Shown here piece after piece: positions 7,177 to 17,880 of a DNA stretch of 64,000 bases. Numbering within the stretch: position 1 is the stretch's first letter; each line of letters begins with the position of its first letter. A program made the translations under genes and the position numbers. Under the pieces are notes generated by a model, which was given only the letters and a program-made list of their open reading frames with translations, made no database searches and had not been told where the DNA came from. Source of the stretch: an uncultured delta proteobacterium (GTDB lineage: Bacteria; Desulfobacterota; Binatia; DP-6); NCBI GenBank assembly GCA_963815115.1, contig CAWFFN010000005.1, positions 640,001 to 704,000 on the forward strand, given 5' to 3'.

Positions 7177-8409
7177 CTAGAAGGTGGCCTCGAGACCGAC
7201 CAGCGGGATCGGGCTGGTGTGAATGCCCTGCTCGGAGAGCGGCACGAGCACGTTGGCGAAGCCGAAGACGGTGTCGTTCCAGAGATTCAAGCGTCCACCG
7301 ATGGAGAGCGCGTAGTAGCTCGGGCGTACGCTGCTCAGGCCGAAGAGCGGAGCGGTGGGATGCGCGCAGCTCGGACTCGACACCGGACAGCCGTTGCGTG
7401 GATTGTAGCGCGGCAGGTCGAAGAAGCCGGCGGACGCGAAGCCGTGGAACGGCTCGCGCCCGAGGAAGCCGAACGACAGGGTCGCCCGATTGGCCAGCGC
7501 CACGTCGAAGCCCGCGCCGAAGCGGCCCTCGCTCACGTCCACGTCGTCGAGGACGAGATCGAGGCCGCCGTTCACGAAGGCCTGGACGGAGACCGGGCCC
7601 GCGATCGGGATGCGGTGGGTCGAAAGGTAGAGCAGCGGGGACAGCTCCCAGGAGCCGGTCCCCTGGAAGTTCTCCTCGTTGCCCGTCGGCATGCGCACCA
7701 CGAGCCCGAACGCCGCGGCGCCCCAGGGGTTCTTGAAGAAGCGGTACTTGCCGCGGAGCAGGAGGTCGCCGACGCCGTTGGCGTGCGAGATGTCCTGCTC
7801 GAACCTCGTCCCGCGCTGCTCCGGCGGGATCGGGACCAGGCTGTTGTCGCTCGGGTTGCGCTTGAACTCGCTTCCCATCGACCCGACGGAGAGCCGGCTG
7901 AAGAGCACCGGCAGCGCGAGGTTGACCTCGAGATCGTCCGTGATCCCGTACGTGCCCTGGAACGTCATCTCGTCGACGACGAGATCGACGGCGTAGCGGT
8001 CGAACCGGAAGAGCCGTCCGCCCCTGGAGGCGTTCTGGCCCGGGAGGATGATCGGCAGCCTGCTGTCGTGCAGCTGGTCGAGGTTCTCGTCCTGGACCGC
8101 GTCGACCGCGACGCGCTGGTAGCTCGCGCTGACGTTCCACTTCCCGCGTCCGATCGGCTGCGCGCGCTCGAGGTAGAGCTGCCCCAGCAGATCGGTCTCG
8201 CGCTCGAAGGACCCCGACGCCGGATCGAACGTGAAGGTGAGGCCGGGCGACGCGGAGATGACGGGAAGCGATCGGGCCACCGTCGCGGAGAGCGCCTGGC
8301 CGAGCGGCTTGGCGGGACCCCGGAACACGGACTCGAACGTCCGAGCCTCGAGCGGGGCGGCGCCGAGCGACGTCACGACGACGGCGGCGAGGAGCCGCCG
8401 CGCGGTCAC
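7177..8409 (-). CDS. Exported protein, probable outer-membrane beta-barrel (MetA-pathway phenol-degradation/'transporter'-like)
   Basis: GTG start at 8409 overlaps the upstream TGA. It has a signal peptide (RRLLAAVVVTSLGAAPLEA), the GVGDLLLRGKYRF...RMPTGNEENFQGTG motif, amphipathic strands and a C-terminal Phe (VGLEATF). Confidence 0.75.
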   Translation of the reverse strand: MTARRLLAAVVVTSLGAAPLEARTFESVFRGPAKPLGQALSATVARSLPVISASPGLTFTFDPASGSFERETDLLGQLYLERAQPIGRGKWNVSASYQRVAVDAVQDENLDQLHDSRLPIILPGQNASRGGRLFRFDRYAVDLVVDEMTFQGTYGITDDLEVNLALPVLFSRLSVGSMGSEFKRNPSDNSLVPIPPEQRGTRFEQDISHANGVGDLLLRGKYRFFKNPWGAAAFGLVVRMPTGNEENFQGTGSWELSPLLYLSTHRIPIAGPVSVQAFVNGGLDLVLDDVDVSEGRFGAGFDVALANRATLSFGFLGREPFHGFASAGFFDLPRYNPRNGCPVSSPSCAHPTAPLFGLSSVRPSYYALSIGGRLNLWNDTVFGFANVLVPLSEQGIHTSPIPLVGLEATF

Positions 8410-10610
8410 TGCGGTCCCCTCAAGCCGACGATCTTCCAGTCGCCGTCGGCTTCCTTGCGCAGCATCCCGGTGGTGGTGACCTCGAGGTGGATCTTCTTGC
8501 CGGTCTTCGCGTCGGTGAACTCGTCCCGGCGGGTGAAGGTGGCGGCGGCCTGGTCGCCCTGGCGGAGCACGTCGATGCCGGAGATCTGCACCTTCAGATC
8601 GGGTGCGATCTGGAAGTAGGTCTGCAGCTTCTGGCGCTGCGATTCGCTCATCTGCTCCTGCAGGGCGGCGATCTGGTCGACGTTCCTCGCCTCCAGGGCG
8701 GCGCCGTAGCGGTTGAGGAGGCTCCGGATGGCGGCGTCGTCGCCGTCCTCCTCGGCGGCCCAGGCCATCGACTGTCCGAACAGCCAGGAAGATCCGCCGG
8801 GAGCGGGCAGCGGCGGGGTCGCCGTGGGCTCGGACGGGCGGGGTCCCGCGCGCGGCTCGTCGGACGGTGTCGGGTCGCCAAGGGTCTCCGTGAAGAGGCG
8901 ATAGACGTCGAGCGTCTCGTTGCCGCGGCTGGCGACGATCTCCTTCAGCTGCTGCGGGGTCGGTGTGACGCCGAGTGCGCGCAGGGTACGTTCCGCGAGC
9001 TCGTTCTCGAGCTCCATCAGCTTCTCCGGCGGCCCCTGGACGTGCTCGGTCGCCACCAGCAGCCCCGTGGCCGCATCGATGACGTCCAGGTCGAGCGACA
9101 CCAGCTTGTCGTCGAGCGCGATGCTCGCCGAGAGCATCCTGTTCATGTGCAGCTGCGCCGCAGCCTCGATCTCGCTCAGCCCCTTCGTCTTCTGCAGGAA
9201 GTCGATCATCTGGCGCGAGAAGACCTGGATGGGCGGGAACTTGCCGAGAATGGTGATGAGCCCGTCGCGGGTGAGCTGCCGCATCCAGGCCGGAACGCCA
9301 GGCGTGCGGGCGCGCACCTCCATCACGCCGATGCGGATCGGCGTCTGCGGACCCGTCGAGGTGCGCCGGAACACGCCCACGCCGATCGCCGCGGCGAGCG
9401 CGACGAGCGCCACGATCGCGGCGAACCGGCCGGGGCGTCGTCGCGGTGCGACGACCGTGGCGGGCGCGGGCACGGGGGCACGGATGGGGGCGGGCGGCTC
9501 GACGGCAGGCGGTGCCGGTGCGGGCCGCTCGGGCGCTTGCGCCGGCGGCAGCTGCGGCAGCGGCACGACCGCGCCGCTGCGCAGCAGGGTCTGCCCTGGG
9601 TTGCCGTAGAGCACGAACGAGAGCCAGGTCGGCGAGCCGGCGCTCTCCGGCCTGCGGCGGCACTCGGCGCGCGCGTCGCGCAGCGCCTCGCCGATCGGGA
9701 CGGGCTCGAGCACGCGCCGGTAGAACGCCTCGGCGAGCGTCGCGGCGTGCCGGTCGCTCACGTCGGCGAGTGTCCCGACCACGGCAACCGCGCCGCCGAA
9801 GAGAAACGCGTAGGCCACGCTCGACACGGTCGCTTCCCAGGAGCCGCTCGCGGGTCCCTGGTGCTCGCGTGCGCTGGCGCACGCGTTCAAGAAGACGAGA
9901 GGCCGGCCGGCGACGTTGGGCTCGATCACCGCCGGGGACAGCGGGCGCGAGTCGGCGAGCAGGAGCGCCGGGCCGGTCTCCTCGCTGGTGATGACGTGGC
10001 CACAGTAGTGGATGAGATCGAAGCCCTCGCCGAGATACGCCGCGACGGTCTCGAAGCTCGCCAGCCGGTCGACGACGCACACGATGTCGGCGAACGGCTC
10101 GAGGGTCTCGCAGACGCCCTCGACCTCCTGGCGCACGAAGGGCAGGTCGCCGCGCGGATCCGAGCCGATGACCAGCGCCCGCGGCCGCGCGCGCATGCGC
10201 GGCGTGGCGCCGGCGAGCAGTGGGCGGTCGAGCACGAGGCGCTTGCCGAGCCCGTAGCGCAGCCCCCAGAACTCCTCCTCGTCGTGCAGGAGCTCCCACG
10301 GCATGCCGTAGAGCGACGTGCTGATCAGGAGCGGCCCCGAGACGCCCCGCAGCTTCTCGCGCAGGCGGGCCGGGACGAGCGTGCGGTAGATCACCTGGCC
10401 GCGCGCCTGCGCCTCCTGGGCGAACGTCTTGCTCTCGGGGCTGCGCAGCAGCGACTCGGCGCTCGCCAGGAGGGCGCGCGTGGTGACGTCGTCGACCGGA
10501 TGGCGGAACTCTTCCTGGAGCGGCTCGCCGAGGTCGCGCTCGGGGATGTCGAGCCGGTAGCGGAGCGCGCCCGCGGTCCGCTCGATGGAGAGCGTCGGGA
10601 CGAGCCTCAT
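8406..10610 (-). CDS. Membrane-anchored CHAT-domain (caspase-like) protease with periplasmic TolB_N/CsgG-like and SnoaL/NTF2-like domains
   Basis: MPWELL, DLPFVRQEV, catalytic LIHYCGH and VFLNACAS, AVVGTLADVSD and WLSFVLYGNP motifs. These are followed by a Pro-rich linker, a TM helix FAAIVALVALAAAIGVGVF and two soluble domains. Start MRLVPTLS at 10610. Confidence 0.88.
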   Translation of the reverse strand: MRLVPTLSIERTAGALRYRLDIPERDLGEPLQEEFRHPVDDVTTRALLASAESLLRSPESKTFAQEAQARGQVIYRTLVPARLREKLRGVSGPLLISTSLYGMPWELLHDEEEFWGLRYGLGKRLVLDRPLLAGATPRMRARPRALVIGSDPRGDLPFVRQEVEGVCETLEPFADIVCVVDRLASFETVAAYLGEGFDLIHYCGHVITSEETGPALLLADSRPLSPAVIEPNVAGRPLVFLNACASAREHQGPASGSWEATVSSVAYAFLFGGAVAVVGTLADVSDRHAATLAEAFYRRVLEPVPIGEALRDARAECRRRPESAGSPTWLSFVLYGNPGQTLLRSGAVVPLPQLPPAQAPERPAPAPPAVEPPAPIRAPVPAPATVVAPRRRPGRFAAIVALVALAAAIGVGVFRRTSTGPQTPIRIGVMEVRARTPGVPAWMRQLTRDGLITILGKFPPIQVFSRQMIDFLQKTKGLSEIEAAAQLHMNRMLSASIALDDKLVSLDLDVIDAATGLLVATEHVQGPPEKLMELENELAERTLRALGVTPTPQQLKEIVASRGNETLDVYRLFTETLGDPTPSDEPRAGPRPSEPTATPPLPAPGGSSWLFGQSMAWAAEEDGDDAAIRSLLNRYGAALEARNVDQIAALQEQMSESQRQKLQTYFQIAPDLKVQISGIDVLRQGDQAAATFTRRDEFTDAKTGKKIHLEVTTTGMLRKEADGDWKIVGLRGPQ

Positions 10611-10836
10611 CGAGCCCCGTACGGGCTGCGCTGGGAGCCGGCGTGCAACCCGCGGGCTACCCGGGCGCCGCACACGGACCCCTGACCCGGCACGCCACGA
10701 GGACGACGGGGTCTCAGGCCTGCTTCGTCGCGCACGGACGTCGTCTCGGTGGAGCGCACCTAGCATCGCGAGGCCCGTGGGTCCACTCCGGGTTCGTCGA
10801 GGGTCGCGCGGCGGCGAGGCCACGGTCTCTCGCCGG

Positions 10837-11724
10837 CTACGCGGCGAGCTCGACGTCGAACCGGAGCTTGAACCTTAGCGTTCGTTCCCGTTCGTGCAGC
10901 TCGAGCACGTACCGTCCGGGTCTCACGCCCTTCACGAGCACGGGGGCCGTTCCCCTGACCGTGTAGCGCGCGACCAGTTCGGCGCGGTCCGCTTCTACCA
11001 CCCGGAGCTGCACCGAGAGCTCGCTGGTCTCGGACCCGGAGACGCGGAGCGCAATCGCCACCAGCTCATCGCTCTGCGCCTCGAGTCGGAGTTCGACCCA
11101 GAGTCCCGAGTCCGCGAGCGCGAACTGAACCTCCTGGCCGAGCCCCGGTGCGGTGGCCTCGGAGGAGTCGGCATCGAGGCCCCGCATCGCGCCCACAGGA
11201 ACGGGCACCGCGCCGACCAGGAAGCCCTCCGGGACCTCGGTGAAAACCGCGGCGGCGCGTCCGACCCGCACGACGGCGTGTCCGACCACCTCGCGCACCT
11301 TCGCACCGAATCGGTTCGCCGTCTCGCGCCACCGTGGCGCGGGAGCCAGGAGCGGCTCGAGTTCCCCGCGCGCCGCGGCGCGCTCGACGGCGATCAGCTC
11401 GACCAGCCGCTCCCGGCAAGCGATGCACCAGCCCAGGTGACGGGCGAGCGTAGGCTCCCGGTTGCGGATGTCGGCCGCAGCGAGGTCGGTGACAAGGTAG
11501 AGCCGATCCTGCACTGCGTCGCAGCCGAAAAGGGACTGCATCCGGTCCGACTCTGCGGGGAGCTCCCCGGTCGCCAGCTCGTAGACCGTCCGCAGGATGG
11601 ACCAGCAGTCGGAGCACCAGGCGGCGTGCTCCTCGGCGGCCCGCCGATTGGCGGCGGTCTCCGGCTCGCCCGGCTGAGCGGGCGGCGACGCGAGCAGAGT
11701 GGCGATGCAATCCTCGTGGTTCAC
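10837..11724 (-). CDS. Putative soluble anti-sigma factor with two zinc-finger (HxxxCxxC) motifs and a C-terminal beta-sandwich-like domain
   Basis: HAAWCSDC and HLGWCIAC motifs, position directly downstream of an ECF sigma gene, and no TM helix. GTG 11724 is preferred over ATG 11736 because the promoter -10 box abuts 11736. Confidence 0.75.
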   Translation of the reverse strand: MNHEDCIATLLASPPAQPGEPETAANRRAAEEHAAWCSDCWSILRTVYELATGELPAESDRMQSLFGCDAVQDRLYLVTDLAAADIRNREPTLARHLGWCIACRERLVELIAVERAAARGELEPLLAPAPRWRETANRFGAKVREVVGHAVVRVGRAAAVFTEVPEGFLVGAVPVPVGAMRGLDADSSEATAPGLGQEVQFALADSGLWVELRLEAQSDELVAIALRVSGSETSELSVQLRVVEADRAELVARYTVRGTAPVLVKGVRPGRYVLELHERERTLRFKLRFDVELAA

Positions 11725-11737
11725 GGCTGCAACCATC

Positions 11738-11765
11738 GGGACGAAAGTCCGCAGTGGGATGTGTC
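11738..11765 (-). promoter_or_regulatory. Putative ECF promoter GACACA-N16-CGTCCC upstream of the anti-sigma gene
   Basis: Minus strand reads GACACA tcccactgcggacttt CGTCCC. The same motif occurs at 12425 and 16875. Confidence 0.7.
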
Positions 11766-11773
11766 GCCCCCCG

Positions 11774-12397
11774 TCACTCGGGGTCCTCGAAAGCCTGGCG
11801 AAGGGCCTTGCGAATGCGTTTGAGCTGTCCAGCCACGCTGTCCCTGGTGAGTCCTTGACGCGCCGCGATCTCCTTTTCGGGCAGGTCGTCCACGAACTTG
11901 AGGCGGGCCACCTCGAGTCGCGACACGGCGCGCGCCACGATGGCGAGCCGCTCCCGGTGGGCCGCGAGGTCCTCGGGGCCGGGGGCGTCGTCCGGAAGGG
12001 AGTCCCGCAGCGCGTGCTCGGGGTCGTCCTCGGGCATGCCGACGTAGCCCCGCCGGCGCGAATGGCGGCGACCGTCGCGGGCCAGGTCCAGCACGGTGTG
12101 GACGAAGAGGGAGCGGGCCCAGGCTTCGAGCCGGTCCGCGTCGCGCAGCGTGTCCAGCTTCTCGCACGAGATCAGCTTCAGAAGAGCCGTCTGGACGGCG
12201 TCCTCGAGGTCGTCCTGGAGCTGGGGGTAGCGCCGGCGGCCGAGCGCGAGCCAGTGGCGCCGGAAGCCCTCCAACACGTTGCCGAGGCGTGGATCGGGCG
12301 TCCCCGACTGTGCAGAGCGCAAGATGCCGAGGATGGCTTCCGGCGGCCCAGTCAGCACTTCATCGTTCCCCTTCGAGATTGACCGAAGCCCCCCCAC
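11774..12397 (-). CDS. ECF-type RNA polymerase sigma-70 factor
   Basis: Region 2 DLEDAVQTALLKL...LEAWARSLFVHTVLDLAR and region 4 HTH LPEKEIAARQGLTRDSVAGQLKRIRKAL. The start may be the GTG at 12358. Confidence 0.9.
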   Translation of the reverse strand: MGGLRSISKGNDEVLTGPPEAILGILRSAQSGTPDPRLGNVLEGFRRHWLALGRRRYPQLQDDLEDAVQTALLKLISCEKLDTLRDADRLEAWARSLFVHTVLDLARDGRRHSRRRGYVGMPEDDPEHALRDSLPDDAPGPEDLAAHRERLAIVARAVSRLEVARLKFVDDLPEKEIAARQGLTRDSVAGQLKRIRKALRQAFEDPE

Positions 12398-12424
12398 CCG
12401 GTCAAGGTAGCGAACAGGGAGGAT

Positions 12425-12452
12425 GACACACTGCTACGCGGAGGGGCGTCCC
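12425..12452 (+). promoter_or_regulatory. Putative ECF promoter GACACA-N16-CGTCCC upstream of the FG-GAP gene
   Basis: GACACA ctgctacgcggagggg CGTCCC. The spacer shares GCGGA at the same offset as the 11765 copy. Confidence 0.7.
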
Positions 12453-12588
12453 TCTCAGCAGACCGCGCAGATGCGAGGCTCAGATGTCGAGGGGGAAAGC
12501 GGCTCGAGTGCGAGTCGAGCTGCGAATGGCCTTTTTCCGGGACTCTGGAGAAGGTAACCTTTCCGATCCCGCCCAAAGATCCCTCATC

Positions 12589-15500
12589 ATGCGGCGTCAT
12601 TCTCGGTCGATTGTCTTCGCTTCGCTGGTCATTCTTCTCCTGACTGGGCTGGCGCGCGCCGACGACATCACCTGCGGTGAAACGCTCTCGCGCGTCATCG
12701 ACGACCGCGGCGTCGATGACGAGCTCACCTTCACGGCGCTGCAGGGCGAGGTCGTCAGCGTCACCGTCGCCGCGGCCGCGGGTCAGCCGTTCAAGTTCGA
12801 TCCGCGGTGGGAGATCACCGATTCCGACGGTCACAAGGTGCCGCTCGCGAACGACGACACGCGTTGCGCCTCCACCGAGCATCAGTGCGAGACCCTCCCG
12901 TTTGCGGCCAGCGACACCTATACGCTCTCCATCCGGGACGACAATCACAACGCGGCCGGCACCTACAACGTCACCCTCGAGGCCGTGTCCGCCACGGCGA
13001 ACGGCGCGCTCAACGGGCCGCCGGCGCAGGTTCCCGCGTGCGCGCGCCTCAATCAGAGCGGCAAGCCCGATGGCACGCAGCTGATCGAACGCGGGCAGCT
13101 CGTCGGTGGCGCCATCGACGTCTTCGGCGAGACCGACACCTTCACCTTCGCCGCCTCGGCCGGCGACGTGGTGACCATCGGGCTCGCGACCGGCGGCTCG
13201 CCCGCCGATTCCTTCGACCCGGTCTGGCGGCTCTTCGATCCCGCCGGCGCGGTCGTCGGTGGAGGGGACCAGGGCATCGTCTACTGCCCCGACACGTGCG
13301 ACCGGGGTCCGCTGCCCGCGGCCGGCATCTACACCATCAAGGTCTACGATTTCGGCTACGACGGCGCCGGCGACTACACGCTGTTCCTGCAGAACGCCGC
13401 GGTCACCACGACGACCACGATCACCACCACCACCGCCGCGCCCGCGACCACCACCACGACGCTGCTGCCGGCGGGCACGGCTCCGATCTACGAGCTGGCG
13501 AAGACGCTCCGGCGTCTCGGTTCGGCGGAGGAGCTCGGTGCGGCGCTCGCCGCGACCCCGGACCGGCTGATCATCGGCTCGCCCGCGGACCAGACGAGCG
13601 GTCCCGCCGCCGGCGCGGTGTTCGTCGTGAGCCTCTTCGGCACTCCAGGCGATCCGAACTACGGCCAGCTGCTGGCAACGCTGGTCAAGCCGAGCGGGCC
13701 GAGCGCGAAGGACGACCGCTTCGGCGCCGCGCTGGCGCTCATCGATCAGAGCATCCTCGTCGGCGCGCCGGGTGACGACACGAAGGGCGAGGACGCCGGC
13801 GCGGCATACGTCTTCGGAGCCGACCTCCGGCCGGCGCTGCGCGACCCGCTCACCTCACCGCGGGGCGCGGCTGGCGGCCGCTTCGGTGCCGCCGTCGCGG
13901 TGGTCGATGGCCAGGCGCTCGTCGGCGCTCCCGGTGAGGACGGCGTGGGACGGGTCTATCTCTTCGATCCCGCCGGAACGCCCATCCAGAATTTCGATGC
14001 CGCCGCTGCCGTCGCCGGCGCAATCGACGTGCAGAACGCCAATGCCGCCACGGCACGCGCCGGGGATCGGTTCGGGTCGGCGATCGCCGCGTCGGGTGAC
14101 GAGATCGTCTTCGGCGCGCCCGCCGACGTCAACAACCCCGGACGCGTGTTCCTCTTCAACAGCCGGACGGGCAAGTGGCAGGTCATTGCCAGCCCGAGCC
14201 CGTCGCCGGGCGACGGCTTCGGCTCGGCCGTGACGTTCGCGGGCAACGCGCAGATCGTCATCGGCGCGCCGGGGGTCGAGAAGATCTTCGTGGTCGGGCA
14301 GCAGCGCGGCAAGCCGGCGCAGGACGTCGGGCTCGCCCCGAGCGGCGGGCTCGGAGCCGCGGTCGCCGCGTTCGGTTCGAATCAGCTCCTCGTCGGCGCG
14401 CCGACGGACGGCGCCGCCACGGGCGGAGCGGCGTTGCAGGTCCGGCTCGACAACAACCCCTCCAAGAGCGAGATCCTGACCAAGTTCGTCAAGAAGCTTC
14501 CCGAGGCAGGCGATGGGTACGGCACGGCGGTGGTCGCGGCAGGCGCTCGCATCGCGATCGGTTCGCCGGGCGACAACGCCGGCACCGTCAGCGGGGGCGC
14601 CGTGTACGTCTACGGCCCGACCAGCACCACGCCGGAGGCGGTGTTCCGCAAGCGTCTCACCCCGTCGGGATTCGGCAAGGCGCTGAGCGCCAATGCCACC
14701 GACGTGGTCGTGGGAGCGCCGGAGGATGTCGAGGGCCACGGCGCCGTCTACCGCTTCGATACGCGCATCCCGTGCACGCCGAACTGTCCGCTGCTCGGAT
14801 CGGCGGTTACGGGCCCAGTCGCCGGCTCGCGCTTCGGCCAGACCGTCGCGGTGCTCGACGGGACGACGCTGGTCGGCGCACCGTCCCAGGACGGCGCGCA
14901 GGGCCAGGAGAGCGGTGCCGCGTACCTGGTGAACCCGACGCAGGTCGGTCCGCTGCTGGCGGATCCCGAGCCCTTCCCCGGCGATCAGTTCGGCTTCGCG
15001 GTCGCCGCGGCCGACAACGACCTCCTGGTTGGCGCGCCGCTTCTCGGCAGCTCCGACACCGGCGCGGTCTTCGTCTTCGAGCAGAGCGACGGCTTCCCCC
15101 GTCGCGTGACGTACCGCAAGCCCACGCCCACCGCGGGCGATTTCTTCGGCGCCGCGATCGCGGTCGACGGGGACACCGTCGCCGTCGGCGCGCCGTTCGA
15201 CAACGCGGCCGCACAGAATGGCGGCGCCGTCTACCTCTTCCGTCGCTCCACCGCGGAGCTGCTGCGGACGGACCCGCTGGTGAGCAACGCCCCGGTCGCG
15301 CGCGAGCTGTTCGGCTCCGCACTGGCGATCAGCCCCCAGTGGATCGTCGTCGGCGCTCCGCTCCAGGACGGCAGCAACGACGCGCCCGGCAAGGCCTACG
15401 TCTTCGACCGCGCCACGTTCGCGCTGGTGCGCAGCCTCGCCAGCCCGAGTCCCCACCCCGGGGATCACTTCGGCGCTTCGGTGGCGATCGTCGGCGGCTA

Positions 15501-16452
15501 CGTCCTGGTCGGTGCCCCGTATGACGACTCCGGCGCCACGCAGACGGGCGCGGCCTACCTCTTCGAGCCCGCCTCCGGGAACCTGGCGCAGGTCTTCAAC
15601 AACCCCGCGCAGAACGCCTTCGACCACTTCGGCCAGGCGGTCGTCGCCGGGCCAGCGGGTCCGGTGATCGGCGCTCCCGGTCCGTCGCGCGTCTACGTCT
15701 ACCAGCCCGCCTCGGGTGGCCTCACGGTCCGCAATGCGCATGGCATCACCGCCGCCGCCTCCGGGCCGCGGTGCGGCAACGGCATCGTCGAGGGCGCCGA
15801 GCAGTGCGACGACGGCAACTCGATCGATACCGACGATTGCCGCAACGACTGCACGCTCCAGAAGTGCTGCACCATCGACCCGCTCGCAGCCGACCGTTGC
15901 AACGACTTCGACCCCTGCACGGACGACGTGCTCGATGCCAGCGGCGGCTGCAGGAACGTGGACAACGGCACCTGCTGCACCTCGGACGCGAGCTGCACCG
16001 GCAACGGCACCTGCCGCCTGTGCGCAGGATGCTCGCTGTTCCCTTGGGACTGCTGCGACCAGGGCGCCGCCTGCATCCTCAAGTCATCGGAGTGCTCCGA
16101 TAAGACGTGCTTCGATGCGGCGACCTGCGAGTGTGAGGGAGGCCTCACCTGCAGCGACGGCGCCGTGCCCACGGAGATCTCGAGTCTCTTCGTGCCGGCC
16201 TGCGACATGCTGCGCCTGGAGCAGGACGGCAGCTCGGACAGGACGCCGCTCCAGGTCGCGCGGCTCGCCGCGAAGGAAGCCCGCAAGATGCTCCGCAAGG
16301 CGATGCACCGCACGCGCGAGCAGCTCTCCCGGCACGTCATCTCCAAGGGCTGCCGCAAGGAGATCATGACCACGCTTCGCCAGGTGCGACGCTCCATCCC
16401 GGAGGGCCAGCACATGCGGAAGTGCGTGGCTCATGAGCAGCCGGGAGCCTGA
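12589..16452 (+). CDS. Large secreted protein: two PPC-like domains, Thr-rich linker, many FG-GAP (integrin-alpha-like) repeats, Cys-rich (DUF4215/myxobacterial-type) repeats and a basic helical C-terminus
   Basis: Signal peptide MRRHSRSIVFASLVILLLTGLARA, a dozen or more FG..A....VGAP...GAVYxF repeats, and CGNGIVEGAEQCDDGN...CRNDC and CNDFDPCTDDVLD repeats. Confidence 0.9.
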   Translation: MRRHSRSIVFASLVILLLTGLARADDITCGETLSRVIDDRGVDDELTFTALQGEVVSVTVAAAAGQPFKFDPRWEITDSDGHKVPLANDDTRCASTEHQCETLPFAASDTYTLSIRDDNHNAAGTYNVTLEAVSATANGALNGPPAQVPACARLNQSGKPDGTQLIERGQLVGGAIDVFGETDTFTFAASAGDVVTIGLATGGSPADSFDPVWRLFDPAGAVVGGGDQGIVYCPDTCDRGPLPAAGIYTIKVYDFGYDGAGDYTLFLQNAAVTTTTTITTTTAAPATTTTTLLPAGTAPIYELAKTLRRLGSAEELGAALAATPDRLIIGSPADQTSGPAAGAVFVVSLFGTPGDPNYGQLLATLVKPSGPSAKDDRFGAALALIDQSILVGAPGDDTKGEDAGAAYVFGADLRPALRDPLTSPRGAAGGRFGAAVAVVDGQALVGAPGEDGVGRVYLFDPAGTPIQNFDAAAAVAGAIDVQNANAATARAGDRFGSAIAASGDEIVFGAPADVNNPGRVFLFNSRTGKWQVIASPSPSPGDGFGSAVTFAGNAQIVIGAPGVEKIFVVGQQRGKPAQDVGLAPSGGLGAAVAAFGSNQLLVGAPTDGAATGGAALQVRLDNNPSKSEILTKFVKKLPEAGDGYGTAVVAAGARIAIGSPGDNAGTVSGGAVYVYGPTSTTPEAVFRKRLTPSGFGKALSANATDVVVGAPEDVEGHGAVYRFDTRIPCTPNCPLLGSAVTGPVAGSRFGQTVAVLDGTTLVGAPSQDGAQGQESGAAYLVNPTQVGPLLADPEPFPGDQFGFAVAAADNDLLVGAPLLGSSDTGAVFVFEQSDGFPRRVTYRKPTPTAGDFFGAAIAVDGDTVAVGAPFDNAAAQNGGAVYLFRRSTAELLRTDPLVSNAPVARELFGSALAISPQWIVVGAPLQDGSNDAPGKAYVFDRATFALVRSLASPSPHPGDHFGASVAIVGGYVLVGAPYDDSGATQTGAAYLFEPASGNLAQVFNNPAQNAFDHFGQAVVAGPAGPVIGAPGPSRVYVYQPASGGLTVRNAHGITAAASGPRCGNGIVEGAEQCDDGNSIDTDDCRNDCTLQKCCTIDPLAADRCNDFDPCTDDVLDASGGCRNVDNGTCCTSDASCTGNGTCRLCAGCSLFPWDCCDQGAACILKSSECSDKTCFDAATCECEGGLTCSDGAVPTEISSLFVPACDMLRLEQDGSSDRTPLQVARLAAKEARKMLRKAMHRTREQLSRHVISKGCRKEIMTTLRQVRRSIPEGQHMRKCVAHEQPGA
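13401..13460 (+). repeat. ACC/ACG codon run encoding a Thr-rich linker
   Basis: Encodes VTTTTTITTTTAAPATTTTT. Confidence 0.8.
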
Positions 16453-16504
16453 GGGGCGGCCGGCCCCGTGGGGCGCCGGCGCCCGAGGGTCGCTCCGAAG
16501 CCGC

Positions 16505-16825
16505 TCAGTCGAACTCGTCGTCGCGGGCCGCGGGCCGCACGTACCGGCCTCTGGCGACCAGCCGGCGGAAGGCTTCCAGGACGGCCGCCTCCCGGCTCAT
16601 CTCCTCGACGCGGCCGTCCTCGTCCTCGAGCCGCACCAGCACCCCGGGCAGCTCGCGCACGTTACAGCCCACCTGCTCGAGAAAGCCGCGCGCGATCTGG
16701 AGGTCGTCGGCGGACGCCTTGATCCGGCCGGCGGCCAGCCAGGCGTCGGCGATGCGCACGGCGGCCAGCTCGAATCGGCACTCGACCGGCCGGGGCACGT
16801 TGCGCAGAACGTCGTAGTGATCCAA
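16505..16825 (-). CDS. Hypothetical ~106-aa cytoplasmic protein
   Basis: TTG start at 16825 with a GGAGGGGG RBS 7 nt upstream, GC3-biased codons, and the third copy of the ECF-like motif upstream. Confidence 0.7.
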   Translation of the reverse strand: MDHYDVLRNVPRPVECRFELAAVRIADAWLAAGRIKASADDLQIARGFLEQVGCNVRELPGVLVRLEDEDGRVEEMSREAAVLEAFRRLVARGRYVRPAARDDEFD

Positions 16826-16847
16826 CCGTGTGCCCCCTCCGCGGGTC

Positions 16848-16875
16848 AAGACGGGGGCAGCGCGGTGGATGTGTC
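16848..16875 (-). promoter_or_regulatory. Putative ECF promoter GACACA-N16-CGTCTT
   Basis: Minus strand reads GACACA tccaccgcgctgcccc CGTCTT, within the ~50-bp gap after korB. Confidence 0.65.
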
Positions 16876-16878
16876 AGG

Positions 16879-17880
16879 TCAGCGTACGACCCAGGTCTCG
16901 CCGCGCCGCAGCAGGCTGCCGAGATCGGCGGGCGAGCGCTCCCTGGCCGCCGCGATCTGCGCGTTGGCGGCGTCCTCGTAAGTCGGGCGCGCGACGGCGC
17001 GCAGGACGCCGACGGGGGTGGGAAACTCCGGCGGCCCGAGACGGGACAGCAGCGCGGCCATCGTCGAATCTCGCTCGTCGTGAACCACCAGGTCGGCCTC
17101 CGTGATACCGCCGCCGAGCTCGACCACCTCGGGGAGCAGGCCCCGCAACCGGATGCCCCGGTTGCGGTCCCGGCCGAAGATCAGCGGCCGGCCATGCTCG
17201 AGGACGAGCGTGCGGTCGGCCTTGCGGGCCTTGTCCGTGAGATCCTCGAAGGCGCCGTCGTTGAAGACGTTGCAGTTCTGGAGGACCTCGACGAAGGAGG
17301 CGCCCCGGTGCGCGTGTGCGCGCCGCAGGACCTCCGTCAGATGCTTGGCCTCGACGTCCACGCTGCGGGCGACGAACGATGCCCCCGCCCCCAGGACCAG
17401 CGCCAGCGGATCGAAGGGCTGATCGACGGAGCCGAACGGGGTCGATTTCGTCGTCTTCCCCACCTCCGAGGTGGGCGAGTACTGGCCCTTGGTCAGGCCG
17501 TAGATGCGGTTGTTGAACACCAGGATGCAGAGGTCGAGGTTGCGGCGAAGGGCGTGAATCAGATGGTTGCCGCCAATCGAGAGTGCATCGCCGTCGCCCG
17601 TCACGACCCACACCGAGAGCTCCGGCCTCGATATCTTGAGCCCGGTCGCGAGGGCCGGGGCTCGGCCATGGATGGAATGGAAGCCGTAGGTGTTGACGTA
17701 GTACGGGAAGCGGCTCGAGCAGCCGATCCCGGAGACGAAGACGAAGTTCTCCCGCGGTACGCCGAGCTCGGGCAGGAGCTTCTGCACCTGGGCGAGGATG
17801 GCGTAGTCACCGCAGCCCGGGCACCAGCGCACGTCCTGGTCGGAGATGAAATCCTTCCGGCTGAGCGGCGCGCTGCTCAC
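16879..17880 (-). CDS. korB: 2-oxoacid:ferredoxin oxidoreductase beta subunit
   Basis: WCPGCGD, SGIGCSSR, TPP-binding GDGDALSIGGNH...NN and YGLTKGQYSPT motifs. Confidence 0.95.
   Translation of the reverse strand: MSSAPLSRKDFISDQDVRWCPGCGDYAILAQVQKLLPELGVPRENFVFVSGIGCSSRFPYYVNTYGFHSIHGRAPALATGLKISRPELSVWVVTGDGDALSIGGNHLIHALRRNLDLCILVFNNRIYGLTKGQYSPTSEVGKTTKSTPFGSVDQPFDPLALVLGAGASFVARSVDVEAKHLTEVLRRAHAHRGASFVEVLQNCNVFNDGAFEDLTDKARKADRTLVLEHGRPLIFGRDRNRGIRLRGLLPEVVELGGGITEADLVVHDERDSTMAALLSRLGPPEFPTPVGVLRAVARPTYEDAANAQIAAARERSPADLGSLLRRGETWVVR

Follow-up and report, generated by a model that had tools for sequence, protein, structure and literature searches.

Which role a caspase-like CHAT protein plays when its gene lies directly behind those of a sigma factor of the extracytoplasmic function (ECF) type and a soluble anti-sigma factor, and directly ahead of that of an outer-membrane beta-barrel, is the question raised by a six-gene cluster of an uncultured delta proteobacterium of the class Binatia. 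The cluster is contained in a 64,000-nucleotide stretch of contig CAWFFN010000005.1 (the window, to which all positions refer unless a locus handle is given). On balance, we find it probable that the cluster encodes a protease-gated sigma switch operating across the envelope, in which the anti-sigma factor would be cut by the CHAT domain. Gene linkage, domain anatomy, a conserved motif and predicted docking, all of them computed, carry this proposal. The six genes are the following:

7177-8409, minus strand: outer-membrane beta-barrel, 410 aa; third-codon-position G+C (GC3) 0.94, PF13557-like
8406-10610, minus strand: CHAT protein, 734 aa; PF12770, supported by homologue lengths
10837-11724, minus strand: soluble anti-sigma factor, 295 aa; two HxxxCxxC motifs
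11774-12358, minus strand: ECF sigma factor, 194 aa from a conserved GTG-CTG-AC start; TIGR02937
12589-16452, plus strand: secreted FG-GAP protein, about 1287 aa; FG-GAP_2, E 7.8e-75
16505-16825, minus strand: small cytoplasmic protein, 106 aa; GC3 0.91, same length on record

The order of the ECF sigma factor, the soluble anti-sigma factor with two zinc-binding anti-sigma (ZAS) motifs, the CHAT protein with its transmembrane and periplasmic parts and the barrel had been given by the first-pass annotation, an earlier reading of the same DNA. That reading had also listed a divergent FG-GAP gene and a small gene, and had described a GTGA overlap between the CHAT stop codon and the GTG start of the barrel gene. 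All of this was upheld, the overlap by a check of the sequence and the two outer genes by GC3 and homologues; the absence of CRISPR was likewise borne out, as an array scan of the window returned no CRISPR-like array. Long spurious open reading frames (ORFs) are abundant in the window owing to its G+C content of about 70%; the six genes are genuine, as judged by GC3 values of 0.86-0.94 and by homologues.

Sigma factor, anti-sigma factor and CHAT protein

The sigma factor is a member of the ECF (group IV) sigma-70 proteins, scoring 55.9 bits against TIGR02937 (cut-off 42.9), while its Pfam matches to r2 (22.4 versus 24) and r4_2 (22.3 versus 25.7) both fall slightly below the cut-off and no NCBIfam subfamily model reached its cut-off. 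No hydrophobic segment was found in the sigma factor, the anti-sigma factor or the small protein.

The two HxxxCxxC motifs of the anti-sigma factor belong to the zinc sites H3?/H33-C37-C40 and C68/H96-C100-C103, of which the ligands H33/C37/C40 and C68/H96/C100/C103 are invariant; by sequence, these are two complete ZAS-type sites. In the AlphaFold2 (AF2) model (mean predicted local distance difference test score, pLDDT, 73.8), helices at 3-118 form two bundles and are followed by a beta region (132-171) and a C-terminal beta-sandwich (198-293), with disordered segments at 123-129 and 173-191. In an alignment of 35 family members, reaching down to 17% identity, the only positions conserved at 90% or more are the zinc ligands, L97, W132, R181 and Y272. 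The near-invariant R181 stands in a linker segment with a pLDDT below 50. A fold search with the model returned generic beta-sandwich matches only. The anti-sigma factor, the gene of which adjoins the sigma gene, would bind the ECF sigma factor.

The anti-sigma family comprises 67 clusters in a 90% library, none of them named and none with Pfam domains; for at least 10 of the 67, the longest contig has the same length as that of a CHAT match. A family profile collected 243 representatives among 1.84 billion proteins. Among 28 distant representatives, ten matched zf-HC2 at E up to 0.01 (five at the cut-off, one of these with two stretches), and 11 gave matches to CarboxypepD_reg on the C-terminal sandwich, all under the cut-off. 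Sequencing runs contained small shares only, and these in the form of contigs. Part of the anti-sigma gene is covered by short contigs of two soil RNA libraries (window 10777-11435; one of 125 nt shows no difference), but, being contigs, they cannot show transcription, its starts or its strand.

The CHAT protein matches PF12770 with 96 bits (cut-off 24), and its dyad H205/C244 is invariant in all 18 sequences compared. By the model and the dyad, the domain belongs to the caspase-fold His-Cys protease family, and peptidase activity is predicted. An N-terminal region and the CHAT domain (about 1-345) are followed by a Pro-rich linker, a transmembrane segment (396-414), a CsgG/LpoB/'TolB-like' domain (about 420-590) and a SnoaL-like domain (about 620-734). 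As the protein has no signal peptide and a single strong hydrophobic segment (396-414), with four Arg residues before and two after it, the expected topology has the CHAT domain in the cytoplasm and residues 420-734 in the periplasm. Scanned alone, the C-terminal 147 residues match SnoaL_3 with 24.9 bits (cut-off 22). No Pfam match was obtained for the membrane-proximal periplasmic domain; 'TolB-like' is the JGI name for homologues, and a single BLASTP comparison with the CsgG-matching domain of another CHAT protein gave a weak hit (35% over 52 residues, E 0.005). The Pfam scan found no TPR matches in the CHAT protein. In locus L013 (6545-9200), the orthologous gene is split into two ORFs near residue 435 by a frameshift or an assembly error.

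The first-pass annotation had named the complex of CHAT and anti-sigma factor as one to be modeled, and the two are indeed predicted to bind: for CHAT residues 1-350 with the anti-sigma factor, the interface score ipSAE was 0.76 (runs 0.78, 0.76 and 0.76), while the best of three controls reached 0.00. The ipSAE mark is reached by 116 of 157 solved complexes and by 2 of 215 mismatched pairs, a calibration which holds only roughly here since our own alignments were used. At least 95% of contacts are shared between the runs, and the partners have pLDDT values of at least 71. Since no comparable solved complex is known to us, the score is unlikely to reflect a memorized structure. The predicted interface joins CHAT residues 147 and 160-188 to anti-sigma residues 237-279, and at its core the CHAT edge strand 174-183 (ADIVCVVDRL) pairs with the sandwich strand 249-255. 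The model supports binding of the anti-sigma beta-sandwich to the CHAT domain, and the interface may be understood as a docking site from which the R181 linker could still extend to H205/C244.

Conservation and spread of the arrangement

Relatives that match the CHAT protein over its full length fall into 144 protein clusters, nearly all of metagenomic origin. In public genomes, the whole arrangement recurs in the same order in five loci (L006, L011, L012, L013 and L014) and in part in three more (L007, L009 and L010); a further one (L008) is interrupted by a contig end. All orthologous loci come from metagenome-assembled genomes (MAGs) labeled Binatia, 'delta proteobacterium' or Thermodesulfobacteriota. 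L008 and L009 carry the same isolate name and come from one MAG, which therefore has two copies of the CHAT-barrel pair, one of which is 51% identical to that of the window.

In a sample of the class, the anti-sigma family was detected in 16 of 401 genomes. Fourteen of these are among the 25 genomes of one family (13 of 24 when the genome of the window is set aside), and weaker matches occurred in two genomes among the 376 that belong to other families. A phylum-wide sample of 301 genomes yielded the periplasmic module in 2. Within the class sample, the CHAT gene directly follows the anti-sigma gene in every anti-sigma locus, and wherever the contig extends far enough, the sigma and FG-GAP genes stand at their expected places. 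The co-occurrence of these genes, which the earlier reading had named as a check, is supported by the orthologous loci and by the class sample.

The pairing of anti-sigma factor and CHAT neighbor extends far beyond this lineage. The 80 best CHAT loci were searched with profiles of the anti-sigma and sigma factors, and the iterated search found an anti-sigma-like ORF in 45 of them (42 of the 71 that have 1.5 kb or more of upstream sequence). All 45 ORFs lie on the CHAT strand and end at or just before the CHAT ORF, and in 41 of these loci a sigma-like ORF stands just upstream. Going by record titles and tree labels, the loci span Chloroflexota, Thermodesulfobacteriota, Nitrospirota, Acidobacteriota, Pseudomonadota and others. 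One 963-aa protein (P0315) even fuses the anti-sigma factor (1-268) to CHAT (396-669) and TPR; this could be a gene-call artefact, yet such a fusion is a classic sign of a functional pair. In a quick CHAT tree, the presence of an anti-sigma neighbor was clustered (15 changes versus 25.3 in shuffles, with none of 500 shuffles as low); this tree is unrooted, has long branches and contains 78 of 88 domain hits, those covering fewer than 180 profile positions having been dropped. Judged by these sequence comparisons, the anti-sigma/CHAT pair is older than the Binatia cluster.

The domains joined to CHAT vary widely. Pfam domains were scanned in 31 of the 36 non-Binatia CHAT proteins, five short or cut ORFs being left out. 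An N-terminal cyclase is present in 15 of the 31 (13 of them with TPR and 12 with CsgG/LpoB), PD40 propellers in three, AAA_16 with TPR in three (one also with a solute-binding domain), Sortilin/BNR in one, Clp_N in two (one also containing a ClpB-like AAA+ part), CsgG in two, either with TPR or lacking it, and FlgT_C in one, while four have no further Pfam domain. A constant anti-sigma partner combined with variable sensors points to CHAT as a transmitter and to the anti-sigma factor as its target.

In another Binatia family (L015, 1-11173), the ECF sigma and anti-sigma-like genes are followed by those of a CHAT-NACHT-HEAT protein (1688 aa) and of a second CHAT protein (1395 aa), which consists of CHAT, the periplasmic module and Sortilin/BNR. 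Two differently sensed CHAT proteins are therefore found behind a single sigma pair in this locus. In locus L108 (7230-13034, genome G517), an anti-sigma-like gene precedes the genes of a CHAT-Clp_N protein and a Double-GTPase2 protein; the gene upstream encodes 308 aa without a Pfam match, and no sigma factor was recognized there.

As for the barrel, it has an N-terminal signal-like segment and ends in ...LEATF. Its match to PF13557 (Phenol_MetA_deg; E 0.0045) reaches 17.5 bits against a cut-off of 22, while 29 of 30 matches in a feature search of the Atlas lie within the PF13557 set and a barrel paralogue in genome G143 exceeds the cut-off with 26.4 bits. The barrel gene directly follows the CHAT gene in every orthologous locus reaching that far. 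Module and barrel occur together in three contexts, namely with CHAT, with TIR and, in G143, with an unknown N-terminus. The TIR form is encoded in the genome of the window itself (L002/L110; G000:C9:1146445-1149341), where a 493-aa protein consisting of TIR_2 (E 1.1e-21; it also matches the PADLOC TIR models), a transmembrane segment, the periplasmic module and SnoaL is followed by a 434-aa barrel 30% identical to that of the window. Neither a sigma nor an anti-sigma gene was found near this paralogue. Only two observations argue for a part of the barrel in sensing, namely its pairing with the module and the GTGA coupling of their genes.

These comparisons lead us to suggest, tentatively, that CHAT acts more generally, in many phyla, as a 'receptor caspase' transmitter. 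Interchangeable sensors (periplasmic CsgG/TolB-like modules, cyclases, STAND NTPases, beta-propellers or Clp-type domains) would act through CHAT on a docked tandem-zinc-finger anti-sigma factor, which would be cut at the conserved Arg to free the ECF sigma factor. In Binatia, the sensor would reach the outer membrane through a dedicated barrel, and the same sensor would also be wired to a TIR domain. If this is true, one receptor chassis drives either a caspase-like or a TIR output.

Promoters and neighboring genes

The candidate control elements of the cluster are as follows:

11740-11765, minus strand: ECF-type motif GACACA-N16-CGTC before the anti-sigma gene, in the 37-nt sigma/anti-sigma spacer
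12425-12450, plus strand: the same motif directed toward the FG-GAP gene; present in 6 of 7 orthologous loci holding the region, not in L011
16850-16875, minus strand: the same motif before the small gene; also in L006, L012, L013 and L014
12379-12405, minus strand: inverted repeat TTGACCG-N13-CGGTCAA upstream of the sigma gene, conserved across loci
10690-10785, minus strand: sigma-70-like promoter TGGACC-N17-TAGGT and leader before the CHAT-barrel pair, found in the window and in 7 of 8 loci

A promoter motif shared by three genes had been announced by the first-pass annotation. Three copies of GACACA-N16-CGTC do exist, but the motif precedes the anti-sigma gene and not the sigma gene. The copy about 15 nt upstream of the conserved anti-sigma GTG is found at the same place in all eight loci searched (L006, L007 and L009-L014). 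In the window, three matches compare with 0.55 expected (1 of 100 shuffles reached three), and in the 6.9-Mb genome 12 compare with three for the reversed control. The three places are kept in orthologous loci, the proteins of which are only 45-85% identical, and clustered triples recur in further genomes of the family. Motif copies number about 10 per genome in 14 genomes with the system and about 4 in 11 without it, counts which we do not use as evidence because genome sizes differ and the locus itself adds three motifs. A CGTC -10 element is typical of ECF promoters, and GACACA-N16-CGTC looks like one. Its position before three genes indicates that the regulon likely consists of the FG-GAP protein, the small protein and the anti-sigma factor itself, which implies negative feedback. 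The feedback regulon proposed in the earlier reading fits this pattern.

A fourth good copy of the motif, GACACATCC...CGTC, lies elsewhere in the genome (L109 4609-4634, minus strand, equivalent to G000:C5:1161608-1161633), 12 nt ahead of the start codon (ATG) of a gene for a histidine kinase (HisKA/HATPase_c), which is followed by a PPK2 gene. The sequence GGTTTGCA downstream of this copy resembles the anti-sigma promoter. The histidine kinase may be a further member of the regulon.

The repeat at 12379-12405 could serve as a -35/-10-like pair, as the operator of an unknown regulator, or as both. A second candidate motif, CTTGACC-N5-RGGGGG, found upstream of the sigma and small genes, was rejected, as its four matches are about as many as expected (3.86) and it is not kept before the small gene elsewhere.

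The CHAT-barrel pair is preceded by its own promoter (absent from L010 among the eight loci searched) and not by the ECF motif, which fits an input rather than an output role. The leader is more conserved than the neighboring coding DNA, with the pattern ...CCGAGACGAC...CCGTG..., and carries the invariant CGAGACGAC. It matched no Rfam family, and a second good copy of its pattern was not found elsewhere in the genome. In the hairpin predicted by RNAalifold, 2 of 14 pairs show covariation, and the covariation term is positive; on account of this weak covariation, we claim no RNA structure.

Concerning gene starts, translation of the FG-GAP gene begins at ATG 12589, and the sigma and anti-sigma genes most likely start at GTG 12358 and GTG 11724, respectively. 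Homologue lengths place the CHAT start at ATG 10610 and not at the top of the long ORF; the upstream extension was rejected as coding because GC3 drops there and homologues begin at MRLVP. The plus-strand ORF 16433-16981 is spurious, the real small gene being that at 16505-16825 on the minus strand.

In every locus that extends far enough to contain it, the FG-GAP gene is transcribed divergently from the sigma gene. Its product has a signal peptide, PPC-like domains, a Thr-rich linker, nine FG-GAP_2 stretches and a tail of Cys-rich DUF4215/myxo_disulf repeats. The small gene is convergent with it, and a 17-nt GC-rich tandem repeat of 2.8 copies (16447-16493) between the ends of the two may be their shared terminator. 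The small protein forms 57 clusters, all unnamed and at least 70% identical, and in the Atlas it appears solely in an unnamed Binatota cluster. Its AF2 model (pLDDT 51) gave no Foldseek match at E up to 0.001; winged-helix regulators are among the weak top rows, an observation that we take as a lead only. The cluster is flanked by genes of an ATP-dependent DNA ligase and a 2-oxoacid:ferredoxin oxidoreductase, as identified in the Pfam scan.

A proposed sigma switch, its alternatives and its relatives

In the proposed switch, the soluble anti-sigma factor would at rest hold the ECF sigma factor with its two zinc-finger bundles, while its beta-sandwich would be parked on the edge strand of the cytoplasmic CHAT domain of the single-pass inner-membrane protein. 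A change sensed by the periplasmic CsgG/TolB-like and SnoaL-like module, probably together with the outer-membrane barrel, would activate the His205/Cys244 dyad, and CHAT would then cut the docked anti-sigma factor, most likely in the disordered linker and perhaps after Arg181. The freed sigma factor would read the GACACA-N16-CGTC promoters and switch on the FG-GAP protein, the 106-aa protein and fresh anti-sigma factor, the last of which would reset the switch. Much the same course had been put forward in the first-pass annotation, and the computed evidence supports it in part. The cleavage, the cleavage site, the signal and the part of the barrel are what we infer here from the anatomy.

Several points speak against this proposal. 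The idea of an Arg in the P1 position is taken from separase and metacaspases, and Craspase reportedly cuts after Leu or Met. ZAS domains are able to respond to redox changes without a protease. The anti-sigma factor of the window gave no match to Pfam zf-HC2 (PF13490) at E up to 1 and no relative among PDB sequences in a profile search, and its identity is derived from motifs, context and distant family members. Barrel and periplasmic module were found only in Binatia among the loci searched, and the core switch can accordingly do without the barrel. The orthologous loci and the class-sample genomes overlap (partly the same MAGs), and kin are not independent of one another. The count of 45 among 80 loci is in part the product of iterating the search within a small set; with the profile of a single pass, 19 non-orthologous loci were recovered at E up to 1, and 11 of these had values under 1e-4. 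The predicted interface, finally, lies away from H205/C244, and docking alone therefore fits a plain tether too.

This position of the interface would be expected if CHAT only anchored or reshaped the anti-sigma factor, the sigma factor being freed by oxidation of the zinc sites or by a partner swap and any CHAT proteolysis being directed at CHAT itself or at other proteins. ZAS anti-sigma factors such as RsrA are redox sensors, and both the conservation of two complete ZAS sites and a weak RsrA match (E 0.021) agree with such a tether or redox switch. However, a pure scaffold would not need the invariant dyad, and the single near-invariant Arg in an otherwise free linker and the many kinds of sensors on CHAT partners, which suit a transmitter enzyme, also speak against a mere tether, which we regard as unlikely. 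A different role, in conflict or defense, would have an envelope breach by a phage or toxin trigger CHAT as a broad cell-damaging protease, with the sigma pair as an accessory; by analogy, the TIR paralogue would burn NAD. Such a role could be read from the TIR_2 domain on the same transmembrane-periplasmic module with its paralogous barrel and PADLOC TIR match, from the CHAT-NACHT and CHAT-AAA_16 STAND relatives, and from the links of DdvA/DdvS and Craspase to defense. It is nevertheless quite improbable, as no PADLOC system was matched by the parts of the cluster, save for a weak BovA match on the CHAT domain, the motif regulon (secreted FG-GAP protein, small protein, anti-sigma factor) includes no known effector, the flanking genes are of a housekeeping kind and the cluster is vertically kept within one family.

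The barrel and module could also monitor export or assembly of the FG-GAP protein and thus exert feedback on the product of the cluster itself, since the FG-GAP gene is its constant divergent neighbor and the main motif-bearing target. Yet no tblastn match to the FG-GAP protein was obtained in the fetched loci in which module and barrel occur with TIR or with the unknown N-terminus, although in L111 an unrelated beta-propeller/disintegrin protein does adjoin the barrel. Such supply control appears to us the least probable of these alternatives. With regard to the protease-gated switch, we consider the reading consistent in itself and its core idea well supported by comparative sequence evidence; to sigma control of this kind, the system would add an unusual trans-envelope sensor and a CHAT/TIR swap.

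The first-pass annotation did not recognize the locus as a described system. This holds for the module itself, as no description of a sigma factor, soluble tandem-ZAS anti-sigma factor and cytoplasmic CHAT protein was found in the paper searches, which yielded only DdvA, Craspase, SAVED-CHAT, CalpL and ECF54, later ECF groups being outside their scope. It does not hold for its surroundings, since a CHAT context of ECF54 is on record and DdvA/DdvS, Craspase and SAVED-CHAT are published analogues. The locus appears to be a member of none of DdvA/DdvS, Craspase and the ECF54 context; DdvA/DdvS is the nearest studied system. DdvA of Myxococcus xanthus joins ZAS, transmembrane segment and periplasmic TPR-CHAT in one protein, for which self-cleavage ahead of the action of RseP has been proposed (PMC11506125). 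It resembles the present system in having a zinc-finger anti-sigma factor on an ECF sigma factor and CHAT proteolysis proposed to start sigma release across the inner membrane (PMC11506125). Here, in contrast, the anti-sigma factor is soluble, has no transmembrane segment and combines two ZAS bundles with a beta-sandwich, while CHAT is cytoplasmic and N-terminal to the transmembrane segment of a separate membrane protein, which has no TPR and has a barrel attached.

In Craspase, a cytoplasmic CHAT protease is said to cut a sigma-binding protein upon recognition of target RNA, which changes the activity of an ECF sigma factor. The type III-E parts are Csx29 (TPR-CHAT), Csx30 and RpoE (PMC10028731). 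The two systems share a cytoplasmic CHAT domain paired with a sigma-binding protein and an ECF sigma factor, whereas the present cluster has no Cas7-11, no CRISPR array and no TPR, and its proposed trigger is the membrane/periplasmic module; its sigma factor scores 15.3 bits against the CAS_III-E_sigma model (cut-off 100).

The actinobacterial ECF54 group has a carboxypeptidase-regulatory-like beta-sandwich protein at +1 and CHAT nearby (PMC7826278, PMC8999054). It is described without an anti-sigma factor, with a subtilase in its context, a GTATCAG/CTCC promoter and proposed proteolytic control (Huang 2015 as cited; PMC7826278). Common to both are the CHAT context and, in distant members of the anti-sigma family, sub-threshold CarboxypepD_reg matches. 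Judged by that description, the present locus differs in its occurrence in Binatia, its ZAS anti-sigma factor, the lack of a subtilase in the Pfam scan and its GACACA/CGTC promoter. The +1 protein of ECF54 may belong to the anti-sigma family described here.

In the CalpL/CalpT/CalpS system, CalpL is reportedly a Lon-type protease driven by cyclic oligoadenylate. The SAVED-CHAT/PCaspase cascade is signal-activated and CRISPR-linked (bioRxiv 10.1101/2023.06.23.546230). Both resemble the proposed switch as signal-activated proteases that cut a sigma or anti-sigma factor, but they are driven by cyclic oligoadenylate from CRISPR/CBASS and have no membrane or envelope part. The FecA/FecR/FecI logic runs from an outer-membrane protein through the periplasmic domain of an inner-membrane protein to an ECF sigma factor. 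The same envelope-to-sigma logic is seen here, but with a 410-aa MetA-like barrel in place of a TonB-dependent transducer, an inner-membrane protein that is not the anti-sigma factor, and release proposed through a cytoplasmic caspase-like domain rather than site-1/site-2 proteolysis; no Pfam match of TonB-dependent transducer or FecR type was found among the proteins of the locus.

Protease-released sigma factors are known from intramembrane proteolysis and, more recently, from CRISPR-linked CHAT and Lon proteases. The locus points to a CRISPR-free family, present in several phyla, in which a cytoplasmic caspase-like transmitter would stand between many sensors and an ECF sigma factor. Its anti-sigma factor would be built for the job, with two zinc bundles for the sigma factor and a beta-sandwich predicted to dock on the protease, and what it offers for testing is compact, namely a promoter motif, the catalytic dyad, an Arg as candidate cleavage site and the predicted interface. 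The family may explain the CHAT and carboxypeptidase-regulatory-like neighbors of ECF54, and the exchange of CHAT for TIR on a single sensor that spans the envelope is relevant to the question of how ordinary signaling comes to recruit bacterial 'death-domain' enzymes.

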